Part shown: one piece after another, positions 13,013-21,454 of the stretch
Layout: each line of letters starts with the position of its first letter
How positions within the stretch are numbered: position 1 is the first letter of the stretch
IMG/VR virus record: IMGVR_UViG_2529292906_000014
Location: 1-47,310 of that record
Strand: one strand, 5' to 3'
Length of the DNA: 47,310 nucleotides
Origin: a virus
Taxonomy: Duplodnaviria; Heunggongvirae; Uroviricota; Caudoviricetes
Translations under genes and position numbers: made by a program
Notes under the pieces: model-generated
Database searches by the model: none
What the model was told of the DNA's origin: nothing
What the model saw: the letters and a program-made list of their open reading frames with translations, nothing else

Positions 13013-13030
13013 CCCGGCTTAAGCCGGGGA
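13013..13030. terminator. 18-bp GC-rich perfect palindrome between convergent Q and NYN genes
   Basis: CCCCGGCTTAAGCCGGGG; contains the NYN stop codon; weak flanking T-runs. Confidence 0.4.
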
Positions 13031-13894
13031 TGTTTCAGATTGAAGTGTTTTTTTCTTGGGCTCGTTCTTAGATGATTTTGTTTTCTTTTGACGATTGAGT
13101 TTTTTCTCTTTGCGTCTGTCAATATAATCGTCCCACCAATCAGGTTTTACTGTTGGGACGATTCTGCAAATATCAGCAATTGCAACAACAATGTTGCTCG
13201 ATTGCACTCCATCGACGTGCTCTGCCAGTGAGGGAGGAACTTGTTGGTTCATTGGATCGAGGATAAAATCCACACCCTTTATACGGGCATGTTTAGCGGC
13301 AGGAACGAAATCAGCATCGCCAGCAATCAGGACGATCACATCAACTAGTTTCTCATGAGCAAGGATAGTTATATCCATACCAAGCTTAATATCGACGGCT
13401 TTTTGTTTATATTCGTAGTAGAAATCGTCGTTAGTTAACTCAGACCATTGAATTTCATTACGTAATAGTTTCTTAAGAGTATGTTCTTTTATTTGCCAGT
13501 TACCGACGTTTGAAAGAATACCCATACGAAGTGCCGTTTTACGATTCTTCCTTAGCTCCTCATGAAGCTTGTTTCGTAAAACATTCGGAGCATGTGTCTT
13601 GAAGTTTTTAGTTGATGGGGTTTTGTTGTCTCCATCAGGCAAAGGATACTTAATCTGTTTATCAAGCGGCGGGCAGTCGTAATAGTAAATACGGTAAAGC
13701 TCAAGTGGTTCACGGTCAGCGTGAGCACCATGTGGAACCTCTACATGAAATTTAACAATTCGCCAGATTATTTTAACAAGTTGTTGGCTGTCTAACTCAT
13801 GCCCAGGGAAATGTTTTCGTAGAAAGTAATCAATCCGACGGATGAAGTAGCCGCCGTCAATCAAGACTGCTGTTTTCTTCATTGAAAAACTCAC
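13019..13894 (-). CDS. NYN-domain (PIN-like) putative ribonuclease
   Basis: 291 aa; NYN hallmarks KKTAVLIDGGYF and VIVLIAGDADFVPAAKHARIKGVDFIL; Lys-rich C-terminal tail; antisense to the surrounding late operon. Confidence 0.8.
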   Translation of the reverse strand: MSFSMKKTAVLIDGGYFIRRIDYFLRKHFPGHELDSQQLVKIIWRIVKFHVEVPHGAHADREPLELYRIYYYDCPPLDKQIKYPLPDGDNKTPSTKNFKTHAPNVLRNKLHEELRKNRKTALRMGILSNVGNWQIKEHTLKKLLRNEIQWSELTNDDFYYEYKQKAVDIKLGMDITILAHEKLVDVIVLIAGDADFVPAAKHARIKGVDFILDPMNQQVPPSLAEHVDGVQSSNIVVAIADICRIVPTVKPDWWDDYIDRRKEKKLNRQKKTKSSKNEPKKKTLQSETSPA

Positions 13895-14636: not shown

Positions 14637-15689
14637 ATGAAAAATACTGTAAAAATAAACAGTGTTGATTTAATCAACGCTGATTGCCTGCATTTTATTC
14701 AGTCCCTGCCTGATGATTCCATTGACCTGATTGTTACCGATCCGCCGTACTTCAAGGTGAAACCCAACGGCTGGGACAATCAGTGGAAAGGGGACGAAGA
14801 TTACCTTAAGTGGCTGGACCACTGTCTGGCCCAGTTCTGGCGGGTGTTAAAACCTGCCGGAAGCCTTTACCTGTTCTGTGGGCATCGCCTGGCATCTGAT
14901 ATTGAGATCATGATGCGTGAACGTTTCAACGTGCTTAACCATATCATCTGGGCGAAGCCGTCCGGACGTTGGAATGGGTGTAATAAAGAAAGTCTGCGCG
15001 CATATTTTCCTGCCACAGAGCGCGTTCTGTTTGCTGAACATTACCAGGGGCCATATCGCGGCAAAAGTGACGGCTATGCGGCAAAAGAAAGGGAACTCAA
15101 ACAGCACATAATGGCACCGCTGATATCGTATTTCAGGGATGCTCGTGCCGAACTGGGTATAACGGCAAAACAAATTGCCGAAGCCACAGGTAAGAAAAAT
15201 ATGGTTTCCCACTGGTTTGGTGCCAGTCAGTGGCAGTTGCCGAATGAGGCTGACTATCGGAAGTTACAGGCACTGTTTTCCCGTATAGCGGCAGAGAAGT
15301 TTCAGGAACAACAACTGGAACAACCACACCACCAGCTGGTGGCATCTTATGATTCACTGAATCGCAAATATTCTGAATTGCTGGATGAGTTTAAATCTCT
15401 CCGGCGCTATTTCTCCGTATCAGTCTCCGTGCCTTATACCGATGTCTGGACGCATAAGCCCGTTCAGTTCTACCCGGGTAAACATCCGTGCGAGAAACCG
15501 GCGGATATGCTCCGGCAAATAATCAATGCCAGTAGTCGACCTGGTGATCTGGTTGCTGATTTTTTTATGGGCTCCGGTTCCACAATAAAAGCAGCAATGG
15601 CGTTGGGGCGTCGGGCCTTAGGTGTTGAGCTTGAGTCAGAGCGGTTTAACCAGACAGTGAAAGAGATAAACGAGCTGGTGGGGAAATAA
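14637..15689 (+). CDS. DNA methyltransferase, beta-class N6A/N4C (motif IV before motif I)
   Basis: 350 aa; N-terminal DPPY (LIVTDPPYF), C-terminal AdoMet motif [13 protein letters not shown]; first long gene of the late operon. Confidence 0.85.
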
Positions 15690-15756
15690 TCTGGTGGCCA
15701 CGTCAGGTGGCCTTTTTATTTCCATTACACAGCACCCGCATCTGCGAGGTGGGGTT

Positions 15757-15849
15757 ATGAAATCCATGGATAAGTTAACAACGGGTGTCGCCTATGGCTC
15801 CTCAGCAGGTAGTGCCGGGTACTGGTTTTTACAGTTGCTCGATAAAGTC
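15757..15849 (+). pseudogene. S: pinholin S (phage 21 S-type), 5' fragment interrupted by IS
   Basis: [31 protein letters not shown] with the dual-start MKSMDK motif; reading frame runs into the IS terminal repeat at 15851. Confidence 0.8.
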
Positions 15850-15892
15850 ATGAACCGCCCCGGGTTTCCTGGAGAGTGTTTTATCTGTGAAC

Positions 15893-16783
15893 TCAGGCTG
15901 CCAGATCATCGTTTCCGATGGAAGCATAATAAGCTTTTTCTGCTTCTGCCGGAGGAGTATGGCCCAGCCTTCCCAGCAATCGTCGATTGTTATACCAGTC
16001 CACCCACGTTAGTGTGGCCAGTTCCACTTCTGCACGGTTTTTCCAGCTCTTACGGTGTATTACCTCCGCTTTGTAAAGACCATTGATGCTCTCAGCCATC
16101 GCGTTGTCATACGAGTCGCCTGTACTCCCTGTTGATGCCAGTAATCCGGCTTCTTTTAGTCGCTCCGTATAGGCCAGTGACACATACTGAGAGCCTTTAT
16201 CGCTGTGATGGATGGTGCCAGACGGACGACGGGCCCACAACGCCTGCTCCAGCGCATCCAGCACGAATGTCGTTTCCATAGACGATGAGACCCGCCACCC
16301 CACGATGTATCCGGCAAACACATCAATGATAAACGCCACATAGACGAAGCCCTGCCATGTGCTGACGTAAGTAAAATCAGCCACCCACAGCTGGTCAGGA
16401 CGTTCTGCCACGAACTGACGGTTTACGCGGTCACCTGTGGCAACGGTTTTCCGGCTGACGGTAGTGCGGACCTTTTTACCCCGGAGAACACCGGCAAGTC
16501 CCATAACCGCCATGAGGCGCGCCACTGTACATCTGGCCACCCTGATTCCTTCCCGTAACAACTGACGCCAGACTTTACGCACACCGTACACCTGATGATT
16601 TTCATCGTATACGCGCTGTATCTCTCTCTTCAGCCAGTCGTCGTGCTGCGCACGGGCACTGCGTTTATCCGGATGATGTCGCTGTTGCTGACAATGGTAA
16701 TACGTTGACGGGGCAATATGCAGTTCGCTGCATACCGGTCCGACCCCGTACTGCTCACGCAGCTTATCCAGCAGTGGCATCAT
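15893..16783 (-). CDS. IS3-family transposase OrfB (DDE integrase domain)
   Basis: 296 aa with DDE-type catalytic region (WVADFTYV...[10 protein letters not shown]...HSDKGSQY...DNAMAES); overlaps orfA at a run of A's. Confidence 0.85.
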
Positions 16784-17106
16784 TTTTTCCAGAGGCGGTC
16801 GAACTCCGCCTTCGCAAAATAAGCGGAAGCCTGGCGAAGGATATCGTTACTGCGGCGCAGTTCACGATTTTCACGTTCCAGCTCTTTCAGACGCTGACGT
16901 TCAGCGGTGGTGAGCCCACCATCACCGCCCCCGGTATCCCGCTCATGCTGGCGAACCCAGACACGCAGAGTCTCCGGCGTACAGCCAATCTTTGGGGCAA
17001 TGGAACAAATTGCCGCCCACTGTGAGTCATATTCATCCTGACTTTCCAGAACCATACGAATCGCCCGCTGACGGACTTCGGGGGAAAAACGAGTATTTTT
17101 AGTCAT
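16780..17106 (-). CDS. IS3-family transposase OrfA (HTH)
   Basis: 108 aa [22 protein letters not shown]... with leucine-zipper-like C-terminus; I recognise this as IS629-type OrfA. Confidence 0.85.
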
Positions 17107-17162
17107 CCTGTTTACCTCTTTCTCAGGGAGTTTAGTCTCCAGGATTTCCGGGGCGGTTCATC

Positions 17163-17285
17163 ACGCCCTCACAGTGGGCGGCATTAGGTGTGCTGGGTAG
17201 TCTGGTATTTGGCTTGCTGACGTATCTGACAAACCTTTATTTCAAGATTAAAGAAGACAAGCGTAAGGCGGCACGGGGAGAGTAA
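17163..17285 (+). pseudogene. S: pinholin S, 3' fragment
   Basis: Removing the IS and one TCA copy restores ...[44 protein letters not shown], a complete phage 21 S-type holin. Confidence 0.8.
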
Positions 17286-17703: not shown

Positions 17704-18237
17704 ATGAACGCAAAAATCAGATACGGCCTGTCGGCTGCCGTTCTGGCACTGATTGCCGTCGGTGCGCCCGCGCCTGATATTCTCGACCAGTTTCTGGATG
17801 AAAAAGAAGGTAACCACACAACGGCATACCGCGATGGGTCCGGCATCTGGACCATCTGTCGGGGTGCCACGATGGTGGATGGAAAACCCGTTTTTCCCGG
17901 TATGAAACTGTCGAAGGAAAAATGCGACCAGGTCAACGCCATTGAGCGTGATAAGGCGCTGACATGGGTGGAGCGCAATATTAAAGTACCACTGACTGAA
18001 CCACAGAAAGCGGGTATCGCCTCATTTTGTCCCTATAACATTGGCCCAGGTAAGTGTTTTCCGTCGACATTTTATAAGCGGCTGAATGCTGGTGATCGAA
18101 AAGGCGCCTGCGAGGCGATTCGCTGGTGGATTAAGGATGGTGGCAGAGACTGCCGTATTCGTTCCAATAGCTGCTTTGGGCAAGTTTCGCGTCGGGACCA
18201 AGAAAGTGTGCTGGCGTGCTGGGGGATAGACCAGTGA
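17704..18237 (+). CDS. R: SAR endolysin (phage lysozyme, GH24)
   Basis: N-terminal Gly/Ala-rich weakly hydrophobic segment ([16 protein letters not shown]) then lysozyme E-x8-D-x5-T triad ([16 protein letters not shown]); pairs with a pinholin. Confidence 0.85.
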
Positions 18238-18242
18238 ATAAC

Positions 18243-18755
18243 ATGTTTGCTAATGCTTGGTTGAAAGTTGCCACGGTTTCGGCTCTCCTCATTGCCTCAT
18301 TTGTTGCAGGGAGTGTGTGGACGGAACGAGCATGGGAAAAGAAATGGGCGGATCGTAATAGTGAAGAATCCTCTCAGGCTGTGAACGCTCAGATAGCTGC
18401 TCGTATGATTGAACAAGGGCGAGTGATCGCTCGTGATGAGGCTGTTAAAAATGCACAAGAACAGGCTGCAAAAGCGGCTGCGAATGTTGCTGGCCTGTCT
18501 GCCACTGTTAACCAGCTGCGCACCGAAGCAACAAAACTTACCGTCCGCTTGGACGCTGCAAAGCACACCTCAGGTCTTGCCGTTGCCGTCGGAAGCAAAA
18601 CAACCGCCACCAACGCCGCGATGCTTGCCGACATGCTCGGAAGTATTGCAGAAGAAGCTAGATACTATGCTGGGCGAGCTGATGAAAGTTACTTGGCTGG
18701 AATGACATGTGAACACATTTACGGCTCAGTGAGGGACTCAAGTAGTGTTAAATAG
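18243..18755 (+). CDS. Rz: i-spanin Rz
   Basis: N-terminal transmembrane helix ([18 protein letters not shown]) and coiled-coil periplasmic domain; ATG shortly after the endolysin stop. Confidence 0.7.
18433..18705 (+). CDS. Rz1: o-spanin Rz1 (embedded in Rz in another frame; start uncertain, 18451 or 18484 possible)
   Basis: Lipoprotein signal with lipobox LLTSC followed by a proline-rich sequence, entirely inside Rz. Confidence 0.55.
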
Positions 18756-18943
18756 CTGGTATGATGATGTTGAGAAGGCGGCACAGCAGGAGCTGTAATC
18801 GACGAGTGCTAATCTAGCACAATTGAGTTCACAAATTGTCTACTTTTGCTATATTGCAACCGATGCCAACAGCCTTTTTTGAGCAAAAATCATAAATGCT
18901 ATCGTGTTGGCAGTTTTTTTCTTTGACGACACGGAATGATTTT

Positions 18944-19366
18944 ATGTCAGAAGTAGCTGTTGAACTTGAAGAGGATTCTTGGCCTGACTTTTTCCCGGTT
19001 GGAGTACCGCCGAAATCAGCCGTCCCTGCTGAGGGCGAGTTTTTCCGTTTGGTAAGGTCTAATCCACCAACCCCTGCATGTTTCCTCTCTACACATGAAG
19101 AGTATCCGCAGCGGCACAAAAAGTATCGTGGGGAAGCACTTCAGTGTGTCTATGGAACATCATTCTTTTCAGAATCGCGCGGGGCTACGGATGCAAAAGC
19201 TAAATTTCCTGCAGCTCTTGGTCATCGACTCGTTGCTAGTGGTCAGGTCACCCCCGTTTTCGGAGTAATGAAAAAAACATTTGCCGATCCAGCGCACTAC
19301 ACAATTTGGCTTAAGCGTAATTGTGCTATTCATGAACATTTTCACTGTATAGGAGAAGGCGTATGA
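18944..19366 (+). CDS. hypothetical protein (141 aa), first gene of an uncharacterized two-gene cassette
   Basis: ATG at 18944 (MSEVAVELEEDSWPDFF); His/Cys-rich C-terminus (CAIHEHFHCIGEGV); stop overlaps the next start. Confidence 0.55.
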   Translation: MSEVAVELEEDSWPDFFPVGVPPKSAVPAEGEFFRLVRSNPPTPACFLSTHEEYPQRHKKYRGEALQCVYGTSFFSESRGATDAKAKFPAALGHRLVASGQVTPVFGVMKKTFADPAHYTIWLKRNCAIHEHFHCIGEGV

Positions 19367-20655
19367 GTAACGTTTTTCTACCTAATACAATGATGGGCAC
19401 TCTATGTTACAAAAGAGTTTATGAGTTCTTCGAAGAGCCTCGCTTCTTTTCAGTTGAAAATGAAGTTAGTACACTTTTTATCGTTTACTGGATTGGTGAG
19501 GATGATGAATGTGATAGTTGGTTTATCATACCAATTTCTCCAGGGCGATTAGAGTTGATTGAAAGAAAAAGAATATGTATCCGTGATGCTTTGATTAATC
19601 AGGAGCAAAACTTTTTCTATGAAGCCCATATACCATACGATCGTACAGGCAAAGTGACTTGGCTGAGTAAAAACTTGGTTGATATATTTGAAATACCTTT
19701 GCCTGTTTCTGAACTATATATAAGTTCGGTAGTTCCAGTAATGCCAAATGGTAAACTAGGCGAGGCTATTACTTACTCAACTCATGAGATCCATTTAGAA
19801 AAAAGCTCAAAGAAAAGTGCAAAAAATTTGGTTTTAAGTCATGTGTCAAACGTATGCGACAGATTCAGCGATCTTTATGACAGAATGCTGGAGATGGCAA
19901 AGTGCAAAGATAAATTACGTCCTGTCGATGCGCGGCCTGGTTCCTTTATCATTTCTTTTAAAGCTGAGAAATTACATTCCTTTGAAGACACTTTTAAAGA
20001 ATTAAGCAGGCTGATAGAACTTAGAGCTGATATTATTCCTTTTGTTTTCGAAAAGGGTATTGATGTTCCAGCTTTGACAGATCTCTTACAATCCATAGTT
20101 GAAACCGGAACGAATATGGAACTCAAAAGCAACCAGACAGGTGAATTAGCTTTTGTTATTACAAAAGCTGGTGCTGAGTTCTATTTAAAAAAATTATCAC
20201 GTCTTTCTACCTCATTGGTTGGAGGGCATCAAATACCTCAAGCAGATGTCCTCGAGACAGTTTATAAATTAGTGGAAATTGTTTGGAGTGGCGAACCACT
20301 TACTCCTATTAATACTGGTTTGCAAGATAGACATATCTACTATTATAAGCATGCAGCTAAAGTTTTGGGATTACTTGATAGCTTTGGTAATGTCACAACG
20401 TCTGGTCAACAACTCGTACAAAGTGATGAGATGACTAGACATAAAATTGCAGCGAGAAAATTTGAAGTGAGTCATGTGGGATGGGCTTGGATAAATTGGG
20501 CCAGTGTTGAACATTTATCCCAAATTGATCCTGACAGCGCTTTAGACTTCCTATTGGAGCAATGCCACTCTTTAAGTCGTGATACTATTGAACGACGTGC
20601 TACAACTATTAAACACTGGTGCCGTGAATTGAAAAATTATTATACACCTCTGTAA
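19363..20655 (+). CDS. hypothetical protein (430 aa), AT-rich, no recognisable domain
   Basis: Long uninterrupted ORF, roughly 35% GC over its 5' end versus about 50% in flanking phage genes; hairpin plus T6 terminator right after the stop. Confidence 0.7.
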   Translation: MSNVFLPNTMMGTLCYKRVYEFFEEPRFFSVENEVSTLFIVYWIGEDDECDSWFIIPISPGRLELIERKRICIRDALINQEQNFFYEAHIPYDRTGKVTWLSKNLVDIFEIPLPVSELYISSVVPVMPNGKLGEAITYSTHEIHLEKSSKKSAKNLVLSHVSNVCDRFSDLYDRMLEMAKCKDKLRPVDARPGSFIISFKAEKLHSFEDTFKELSRLIELRADIIPFVFEKGIDVPALTDLLQSIVETGTNMELKSNQTGELAFVITKAGAEFYLKKLSRLSTSLVGGHQIPQADVLETVYKLVEIVWSGEPLTPINTGLQDRHIYYYKHAAKVLGLLDSFGNVTTSGQQLVQSDEMTRHKIAARKFEVSHVGWAWINWASVEHLSQIDPDSALDFLLEQCHSLSRDTIERRATTIKHWCRELKNYYTPL

Positions 20656-20681
20656 AGGATAATTTTCGTAGTTAACAATGA

Positions 20682-20708
20682 ACCACTGACGTCTGTCGGT
20701 GGTTTTTT
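20682..20708 (+). terminator. intrinsic terminator after the two-gene cassette
   Basis: Hairpin CCACTGACG...TGTCGGTGG followed by T6. Confidence 0.6.
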
Positions 20709-20770
20709 AATAGATAATTTCCCACTTATCCACTTGATTTTTGATGGGTCCTCCAAGTGGGGGGCCTGCC

Positions 20771-20790: not shown

Positions 20791-20959
20791 AAAAAGGCTA
20801 GTTTTTGAAATTTCATTCGTCATCACCACCACTGTAATAGATTGATATTACAGTGGTTTTATTTTTATGGTGTCGATTTTGATTGTTTTTTGTTCATCAC
20901 TAACACCGTTTGCCTAAAGTTGTTCGCAAGATGCATGTTTAAAACATTCTGGAGCGGGT

Positions 20960-21454
20960 ATGGATCGAGAGTTAAAAAATCTGACGCTGAATATCAGTCA
21001 ACTGGCGGCACTGTCAGGTGTACATCGCCAGACTGCTGCGGCAAGGCTGCAAAATCTACCCGTTGCAGGGGGGCATGAAAGCAACCTCAAGCTTTATCGG
21101 GTGGTTGATATTGTGTCGGCATTTCTGGCATTGCCACCGCCGGTTGCAGAAGGCGAAATGGACGCGCATGAGCGCAAAGCCTGGTATCAGTCTGAACGTG
21201 AGCGTCTTAAGTTCGAACAGGAAACGGCACAACTCATTCCGGCCAGTGATGTCAGACGGGAGTTTGCCATCTGGGCAAAAGCGGTCGTGCAGGTGCTGGA
21301 GACATTACCGGATATTTTGGAACGTGACTGCGGTCTGCAGCCTGCCGCTGTGAGCCGTGTTCAGTCCATTATTGATGATCTGCGCGATCAGATAGCCCTG
21401 CGGGTGACTGAAGCAGGTGCGGATGATGAGGAGGAATTACAGCAGGAGGAGTAA
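20960..21454 (+). CDS. terminase small subunit (Nu1-like, HTH)
   Basis: 164 aa with N-terminal HTH (NISQLAALSGVHRQTAAARLQNL) and acidic C-terminus; stop overlaps the large subunit start. Confidence 0.8.
   Translation: MDRELKNLTLNISQLAALSGVHRQTAAARLQNLPVAGGHESNLKLYRVVDIVSAFLALPPPVAEGEMDAHERKAWYQSERERLKFEQETAQLIPASDVRREFAIWAKAVVQVLETLPDILERDCGLQPAAVSRVQSIIDDLRDQIALRVTEAGADDEEELQQEE

Follow-up and report, generated by a model that had tools for sequence, protein, structure and literature searches.

The cassette and its site in the prophage

The DNA analysed here (hereafter the window) is the 47,310-nucleotide (nt) IMG/VR record IMGVR_UViG_2529292906_000014, a complete lambdoid prophage with integrase, S24-type repressor, methylase, lysis, terminase, head and tail genes. 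Between its spanin gene and the cos region lies a cassette of two genes, designated A and B, the products of which are related to those of PD-T4-10, an anti-phage system of Escherichia coli; the present work deals with the relationships, the distribution and the possible function of this pair. The original prediction had placed two overlapping open reading frames (ORFs) between Rz and cos and this is the arrangement found, with A coding for 140 amino acids (aa) and its TGA stop overlapping the ATG of B (ATGA, 19363-19366). The Shine-Dalgarno sequence for B, GGAGAAGG, sits within the end of A. An alternative in-frame ATG of A at 18896 would give a protein of 156 aa; the start at 18944 is favoured, being the RefSeq start of the identical gene and the position where most close homologues begin (MSE...).

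Upstream of A a sigma-70-like promoter is predicted, which is the top match of the region (10/12 positions plus TG) and whose two hexamers are invariant in the copies of E. coli 155, Kluyvera and Raoultella despite diverged surroundings. An 8-nt inverted repeat follows, the arms of which are kept in 4/4 aligned copies (with one A-to-G change in Raoultella) and enclose a 33-nt spacer that varies; folded as RNA it performs no better than shuffled sequence (z = -0.5), and it is regarded as a candidate operator. No Rfam match was obtained for RNA elements in the leader and intergenic regions. The terminator expected after the second gene corresponds to a hairpin 3' of B with an 8-bp GC-rich stem, a 4-nt loop and U6 (-16 kcal/mol, z = -2.9, 1/200 shuffles folding as well), which was not listed by the consensus scanner. 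With a promoter, two coupled genes and a terminator, the cassette thus has the build of a classical autonomous accessory unit, or moron.

Backbone homology to phages phi458 and mEp460 restarts at 20739-20742 (blastn). The complete genome deposited for phage phi458 (host E. coli MC1061) shows 99.7% identity to the window over the stretch that starts at 20739 and includes cos, terS and terL, yet the cassette is missing and only two small ORFs occupy the interval between Rz and cos; in mEp460, likewise, that spot has only tiny ORFs. The ~2 kb from 18756 to 20738 thus represent an insertion into the accessory-gene site of the right end, in agreement with the moron position initially proposed. No repeats flanking the insert were found. 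GC content across the insert is 35-47%, with 47.3% in A and 37.0% in B, compared with 50.5% in the whole window, 50.7% in the spanin gene, 53.0% in the endolysin gene and 53.3% and 54.5% in the genes for the terminase subunits. The marked AT-richness attributed to the second gene is thus real (37% GC against 53-54% in the flanks), and its horizontal acquisition is backed by the low GC, by the Raoultella copy, which shares the cassette alone and nothing outside it, and by relatives at differing prophage sites.

Table 1. Position of the cassette, of its signals and protein regions, and of other features of the prophage
Feature	Position	Strand	Description
Integrase	1459-2622	minus	adjoins tRNA-Thr
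NYN-domain ORF	13019-13894	minus	291 aa; Pfam 1.4e-9
N6/N4 DNA methylase	14637-15689	+	Pfam 1.3e-42
Holin (S) gene fragments	~15694-15850 and 17161-17285		either side of the insertion sequence
IS3-family insertion sequence	15851-17160		1310 bp
Insertion sequence orfB	15893-16783	minus	
Insertion sequence orfA	16780-17106	minus	
Endolysin	17704-18237		5' of cassette
DUF2514 Rz-type spanin	18216-18755		5' of cassette
Accessory insert (moron)	18756-20738	+	from just after spanin stop codon to resumption of cos-region backbone homology
Sigma-70-like promoter (predicted)	18828-18855	+	TTCACA, 16 nt, TGcTATATT (extended -10)
8-nt inverted repeat	18864-18871 and 18905-18912	+	TGCCAACA and TGTTGGCA; between promoter and start of gene A
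Gene A	18944-19366	+	140 aa; PD-T4-10A-like small protein, putative antitoxin/partner of B
Gene B	19363-20655	+	430 aa
B residues 1-130 (DUF6575 core)	19363-19752	+	Pfam DUF6575, residues 3-121 at 8e-29 on fragment
B residues 131-294 (middle)	19753-20244	+	specific to 430-aa family
B residues 295-430 and stop	20245-20655	+	helical, predicted tandem winged-helix, weak DUF7226 match
Terminator-like hairpin	20683-20708	+	CCACTGAC, loop GTCT, GTCGGTGG, then T6; 3' of B
cos-region homology	from 20739		3' of cassette
12-nt inverted repeat	20828-20857		ACCACTGTAATA / TATTACAGTGGT, perfect, 6-nt loop, then T-run; between cos and terS
DUF1441 small terminase	20960-21454		3' of cassette, followed by large terminase

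Relationship to PD-T4-10 and architecture of the two proteins

PD-T4-10 came out of a functional selection, with E. coli ECOR65 as its source, and consists of two overlapping ORFs without predicted function (Vassallo et al. 2022, Nat Microbiol, PMC9519451). Its B is toxic and is neutralised by A; A could not be deleted, deletion of B abolishes the resistance to T4, and the system protects against T-even phages by abortive infection (PMC9519451). The ECOR65 proteins are RCO36089.1/RCO36088.1. For the comparison, the real A/B junction was rebuilt from the cloning primers in Table S8 of PMC9519451, and the resulting 48-mer has an exact match in 13/5,426 E. coli genomes. In one of them, E. coli 13C1079T (locus L027), each of the four primers specific to the genes has its match at an annotated gene end, and together they delimit an operon of 1604 bp, the published length, coding for an A of 171 aa and a B of 363 aa with an ATGA overlap; RefSeq names this B, and equally the protein identical to B of the window, a DUF6575 domain-containing protein. 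In L027 (8275-10026) the operon is located in a P2-like prophage between a replication endonuclease and a portal gene and adjoins an AIPR-family gene (abortive-infection phage resistance), so that two defence candidates are stacked at one site.

Similarity of A to PD-T4-10A, limited in BLASTP to 28% over 64 aa (E 0.004), extends over 115 columns when a 137-sequence profile of the A family is aligned to PD-T4-10A with hhalign (97.5%, E 8.7e-12; 1.1e-14 with hmmsearch), and the conserved R, S, G and H positions of A are also present in PD-T4-10A. The sole PADLOC match of A is to PD-T4-10_A (1.1e-5, profile positions 25-144 of 148). On these sequence comparisons A is homologous to PD-T4-10A over its whole length. 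As to B, BLASTP gave 21% over 42 aa (E 0.001) and a 20-sequence profile of its core aligned B 12-124 with 15-124 of PD-T4-10B (hhalign 91.5%, E 8.5e-7), the sole PADLOC match being to PD-T4-10_B (2.8e-4, residues 32-89, 58/353 profile positions); by the same kind of comparison, B is homologous to PD-T4-10B in its N-terminal ~125 residues only. The two systems have in common an adjacent, co-oriented pair made of a small A and a larger B with overlapping stop and start codons, with A homologous to PD-T4-10A. The homology of B does not extend over most of its length and for this reason the cassette is not filed as PD-T4-10 itself; it is a new architectural variant in a broader family defined by A and by the DUF6575 core.

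Other likenesses go beyond gene order. The ATGA stop/start overlap is identical, both cassettes are AT-rich with B below A (45% and 39% GC in PD-T4-10, 47% and 37% in the window), both lie in the accessory part of a temperate prophage and both are rare, being present in 13 (PD-T4-10) and 8 (window cassette) of 5,426 complete E. coli genomes. On the other hand, B of the window is longer (430 aa vs 363), shows no detectable similarity in residues ~125-430, and has there the middle motifs THExH and RPGSF and a tandem winged-helix, DUF7226-like C-terminus; moreover, it resides in a lambdoid prophage at the Rz-cos site, and PD-T4-10 in a P2-like one. Measurements of toxicity, neutralisation and defence relate to PD-T4-10 only. 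The open literature searched on PD-T4-10 and DUF6575 yielded no paper after the 2022 discovery and one 2024 survey.

It had been stated that neither protein belongs to a recognisable family. This proved incorrect, as both match the PADLOC PD-T4-10 models and B is a DUF6575 protein at 1.8e-37. Protein A itself has no match in Pfam, NCBIfam, PHROGs or PDB. A profile search of 1.84 billion representative proteins returned an A family of 474 clusters at 50% identity with E <= 1e-3 (73 with E <= 1e-10), almost all of 120-150 aa. In the alignment of 137 representatives, the mean identity of which is 23%, S73 and G107 are invariant and P14, P18, P22, P23, R35, V37, F47, H118 and W122 are conserved in at least 90% of sequences. 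The PD-T4-10_A model, and essentially no other PADLOC model, is matched by 95/137 representatives; in Pfam the 137 have no meaningful match, and in PHROGs there are 6 weak ones, to one unannotated family. The His/Cys-rich tail noticed in A (HEHFHC) does exist, but it is confined to the close subfamily and is not kept across the wider family. N-terminal extensions of some A-family proteins were considered as possible domains and rejected, since they contain no Pfam domains and look like miscalled starts. Likewise, an ADP-ribosyltransferase-like R-S-E or a 2H-phosphoesterase HxTx motif, considered by eye, was discarded because the order of secondary structures and the conserved residues are at odds with it, and it has no support from any tool.

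Protein B matches Pfam DUF6575 (PF20215) with 129.3 bits (E 1.8e-37, residues 3-221, profile positions 2-214 of 218), well in excess of the gathering threshold of 26.6 bits, and has no match in PHROGs and NCBIfam. An AlphaFold2 model built from 45 sequences (predicted local distance difference test, pLDDT, 90.7; predicted template modelling score, pTM, 0.71) comprises a beta-rich N-terminal part, a mixed middle and a helical C-terminal third. The beta-rich N-terminal core (pLDDT about 85-94) is the only part of B common to PD-T4-10B and to all other partners of the A family. The middle region carries, in a 45-sequence alignment, the invariant motifs T140-H-E-x-H144...K147 and R191-P-G-S-F195; it has no sequence match in PDB, PHROGs and NCBIfam, nor could similarity be detected between it and the C-termini of the other B classes. 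A PD-(D/E)xK or His-Me nuclease in this region, considered by eye, was rejected since secondary-structure order and conserved residues misfit and no tool supports it.

The C-terminal region probably binds nucleic acid, judging from the predicted model, in which its winged-helix portion resembles BrxA (PDB 7zge), BrxA-like 3bhw and the DNA-recognition domains of FokI and N.BspD6I. The resemblance to BrxA and to FokI/N.BspD6I is at the fold level only, with 7-13% identity; unlike them, the cassette has no BREX (bacteriophage exclusion) or restriction gene context and no FokI-type nuclease domain, and neither sequence-level similarity to BrxA/DUF1819 nor a BREX operon places B in that family. The match to DUF7226 (PF23871, threshold 27 bits) is weak, 22.8 bits with the whole protein and 23.9 bits with the C-terminal fragment, and a precomputed DUF7226 match exists for 10/47 B homologues. 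A Salmonella 4-kb 'plasmid' matching the C-terminus of B alone was rejected as an instance of an independent domain, its gene being truncated at the contig end. Foldseek searches with the B model gave nothing significant in PDB, so that the folds of the core and of the middle region have no detectable solved analogue, and in BFVD the sole match was a further DUF6575 protein, that of an uncultured siphovirus. When PDB chains were searched with A and B by sequence and by profile, only chance matches resulted, to myoglobin and a nitroreductase.

Linkage and distribution of the family, and other features of the prophage

An A-like ORF is found directly 5' of a B-like (DUF6575-core) ORF in 24/24 related loci examined, which span several phyla and come from Enterobacterales, Vibrio, Psychromonas, Rheinheimera, Acidobacteria, a cyanobacterial plasmid and metagenomic genomes. 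The linkage holds whichever gene is used as the entry point, with an A-like ORF directly preceding in 11/11 loci fetched via B and a DUF6575 gene directly following in 7/7 loci fetched via diverse A-family proteins; the same order occurs in the Oscillatoria plasmid, Vibrio, E. coli (48% variant), Proteus and PD-T4-10 loci. Among DUF6575 proteins, an uncharacterised family, B is a high-scoring member with an A-family gene immediately 5', as in every locus examined, and differs from other members that are core-only (134-206 aa), PDC-M63B-like or fused to a superfamily 2 (SF2) helicase.

In Enterobacterales and Vibrio the 430-aa family proper numbers about 47 clusters of homologues, ~430 aa long and 40-95% identical, and its architecture was found in gamma-proteobacteria only (Enterobacterales, Vibrio, Psychromonas, Rheinheimera); 10/10 further members tested match PD-T4-10_B weakly, in the same register and at the N-terminus only. 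Distant B-like proteins have in common the first ~90-180 profile positions, mostly ~115-150. Defining as distinct those C-termini with no detectable similarity between them, the partners of A fall into five classes: core only (134-157 aa), PDC-M63B-like C-terminus (396-404 aa; a PADLOC defence-candidate family, E 9e-14), SF2 DEAD/ResIII helicase fusion (807-826 aa, Acidobacteria), PD-T4-10 type and window type (430 aa). The output modules seen on the core are accordingly a winged-helix DNA binder, an SF2 helicase, PDC-M63B, the PD-T4-10 toxin domain, or none.

Two of these variants deserve a description. In an Acidobacteria metagenome-assembled genome (MAG; locus L010, CAILAC010000016.1, 2817-8418), the end of a 928-aa ORF, methyltransferase-like by eye and with an NPPY motif, is overlapped by the A-like gene, after which comes a fusion of the DUF6575 core with an SF2 DEAD/ResIII helicase (807 aa); a similar B-like ORF occurs in locus L011. 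L010 has the look of a restriction- or BREX-like island into which the A-core pair was recruited. In loci L017 (5502-6692) and L018 (5418-6629) the DUF6575 protein matches PDC-M63B over its last ~250 aa (E 9e-14 and 2e-6, respectively), and the Oscillatoria protein (L022, 3983-5197) has no PADLOC match but a C-terminus 63% identical to that of L018. At the sequence level, the predicted PDC-M63B system is linked to the PD-T4-10 family by the common N-terminal core.

All copies of the cassette in complete E. coli genomes (8/5,426) are at least 98.6% identical. Genomic context was covered for 2/8, one lying in a degraded Qin-like prophage remnant and the other in an intact lambdoid prophage ahead of terS/terL. 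Part of the query has a match in more than 2,000 genomes, and among the partial matches listed this part is the cos-side ~160 bp. In deposited phage genomes the cassette is absent, both as DNA and by tblastn (50,697 records). Four different prophage accessory sites are occupied by the 430-aa family: the Rz-cos site (this window, and Kluyvera with a different terminase), the lysis-terS site (an HK97-type prophage of Proteus), the Q-holin site (other E. coli prophages, with the 48% identical variant) and an integrase-adjacent site (a Vibrio cholerae prophage). Members are also found on large plasmids, and A-family loci also at non-phage chromosomal sites. The ratio of nonsynonymous to synonymous substitution rates (dN/dS) is 0.096 for A and 0.069 for B against Kluyvera, and 0.11 and 0.088, respectively, against Raoultella; by these estimates both genes are under purifying selection. 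The 4-nt A/B overlap is kept in 4/4 enterobacterial copies (E. coli 155, Kluyvera, Raoultella and an Enterobacteriaceae MAG). Two loci labelled 'MAG: Bacillota bacterium' also contain the cassette, one (L003, JAEWTL010000010.1) with a B protein 100% identical, ~99% DNA identity and flanking E. coli-type lambdoid genes, and the other (L007) with a truncated copy ~64% identical; both are almost certainly contigs from enterobacterial prophages that were binned into Bacillota genomes by mistake.

As regards the rest of the prophage, the holin (S) gene is interrupted by an IS3-family insertion sequence. Homology to mEp460 ends at 15850 and restarts at 17161, with a 3-bp duplication, and the terminal repeats, TGAACCGCCCCGG..., look like those of IS629/IS1203. 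The prophage is probably lysis-defective and trapped by this insertion, the cassette retaining its own promoter. An ORF with an NYN (RNase-like) domain, on the strand opposite to the surrounding early and late genes, may be another accessory or defence gene. The N6/N4 DNA methylase just 5' of the lysis genes has the same place in mEp460 and phage cdtI; phages of this kind typically carry such an orphan methylase. Finally, the perfect 12-nt inverted repeat between cos and terS belongs to the conserved phage backbone, outside the cassette, and could be a terminator or a terminase- or IHF-related (integration host factor) cos element.

Possible function of the cassette

A defence function of the cassette, as put forward in the original prediction, is likely on the present analysis. 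More specifically, we favour with moderate confidence the interpretation of the cassette as a PD-T4-10-type, toxin-antitoxin-like system that would give the lysogen abortive-infection immunity against other phages. In this mechanism A would bind the DUF6575 core of B and hold B inactive, infection would remove or override A, and the freed B would act on nucleic acid by means of its middle region and its C-terminal tandem winged-helix domains, thus stopping the growth of the infected cell ahead of phage release. The earlier suggestion of defence is supported by the homology of the two genes, in the same order, to the validated PD-T4-10; the support is partial, B having just its N-terminal ~125 aa in common with the validated toxin, and its function is one that we infer. 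The searches found no homology to structural, packaging or lysis proteins, and the pair co-occurs far beyond the lineage of this prophage, both findings leaving the defence proposal in place.

Several points weigh against the abortive-infection interpretation. B shares with the validated toxin ~125/430 residues, neither BLASTP nor profile comparison detecting similarity past ~residue 125, and should PD-T4-10B owe its toxicity to its own C-terminal part, that property would not carry over to B of the window. The pairwise E-values to PD-T4-10 (0.004 and 0.001) are weak, so that homology rests on the profile comparisons and on conserved gene order. The core of B has no invariant polar residues of the catalytic kind, B has no toxin-family match, and no nuclease or other effector fold was identified in it. 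A has the invariant or near-invariant residues R35, S73 and H118, which is unusual for a purely stoichiometric antitoxin, and its AlphaFold2 model, from a 13-sequence alignment, has a pLDDT of 33 and is not usable. Comparison with classical type II toxin-antitoxin modules gives a mixed picture. The bicistronic overlap, the small first gene, the candidate palindromic operator and the mobile carriage are alike; by contrast, A has no recognisable DNA-binding domain, the DNA-binding-like domains being on the putative toxin, and neither protein is in a known toxin or antitoxin fold family, so that the cassette is not assigned to type II.

The conserved residues of A are central to a different explanation, in which A is catalytic, being either a type VII-like enzyme antitoxin that covalently modifies B or the true effector, and B is a nucleic-acid-sensing scaffold whose variable C-terminus sets what is sensed. 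We consider it unlikely, although S73 and G107 are invariant and R35, H118 and W122 conserved in at least 90% of the 137 representatives, with R, S, G and H found in PD-T4-10A as well, although the core of B lacks conserved polar residues, although minimal systems consist of A and a 134-157-aa core alone, and although the modules at the C-terminus of B belong to the DNA-binding or helicase kind and are no evident toxins. In PD-T4-10, indeed, B alone is toxic and A alone is not reported to be so (PMC9519451). Furthermore, no enzyme-family match was obtained for A in Pfam, PDB, NCBIfam and PHROGs, and conserved residues can also be structural or located at an interface.

That the pair is an addiction module only, stabilising the prophage or propagating itself without any anti-phage role, appears to us quite improbable. 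Such a module would show the classical architecture of a small 5' gene overlapping a larger 3' gene and would be mobile between elements, as the cassette is, and it could account for the persistence of the cassette in a defective Qin-like remnant and in the present prophage with its split holin gene. Nevertheless, the one relative that has been tested, PD-T4-10, does defend (PMC9519451); the pair recurs at defence-type accessory sites, its distant relatives adjoin a DNA methylase, helicase fusions and an AIPR-family gene, and other B variants carry the PADLOC defence-candidate domain PDC-M63B. Very improbable is a role of B as a DNA-binding regulator or exclusion factor in the phage's own biology (cos/packaging, lysis timing or repression of superinfecting genomes) instead of a toxin: its vicinity to cos and the terminase genes, the predicted tandem winged-helix region and the conserved inverted repeat of the leader are set against phi458, deposited as a complete genome, with 99.7% identical cos/terS/terL and no cassette, against relatives located next to an integrase, between Q and holin, on plasmids and at non-phage chromosomal sites, and against the absence of any homologue in the 50,697 deposited phage genomes (tblastn). 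A packaging or lysis role in particular was rejected, given phi458 and the varied positions of the family.

The validated system is part of a much larger family, defined by A and the ~125-residue DUF6575 core and not by the whole toxin. The remainder of B is swapped between lineages, which makes the A-core interface the conserved control step to target experimentally. Automated defence annotation probably misses such variants under the presumed PADLOC thresholds, the B match being weak and covering ~16% of the PADLOC model. For finding what DUF6575 systems do, the cassette is a tractable 2-kb E. coli unit with its own predicted promoter and a confident model of B. A relative of PD-T4-10 in a prophage accessory site would hardly surprise a specialist; the modularity of the family and the conserved polar residues of A are worth pursuing. 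A more far-reaching idea, to which we give little credence at present, is that A and the ~125-aa DUF6575 core may constitute a widespread two-part control switch acting on interchangeable outputs, with A no passive antitoxin but a small new-fold enzyme (invariant R, S and H) that controls or executes the response. If true, this would define a new mechanistic class of phage-sensing module, of which PD-T4-10 would be one instance.

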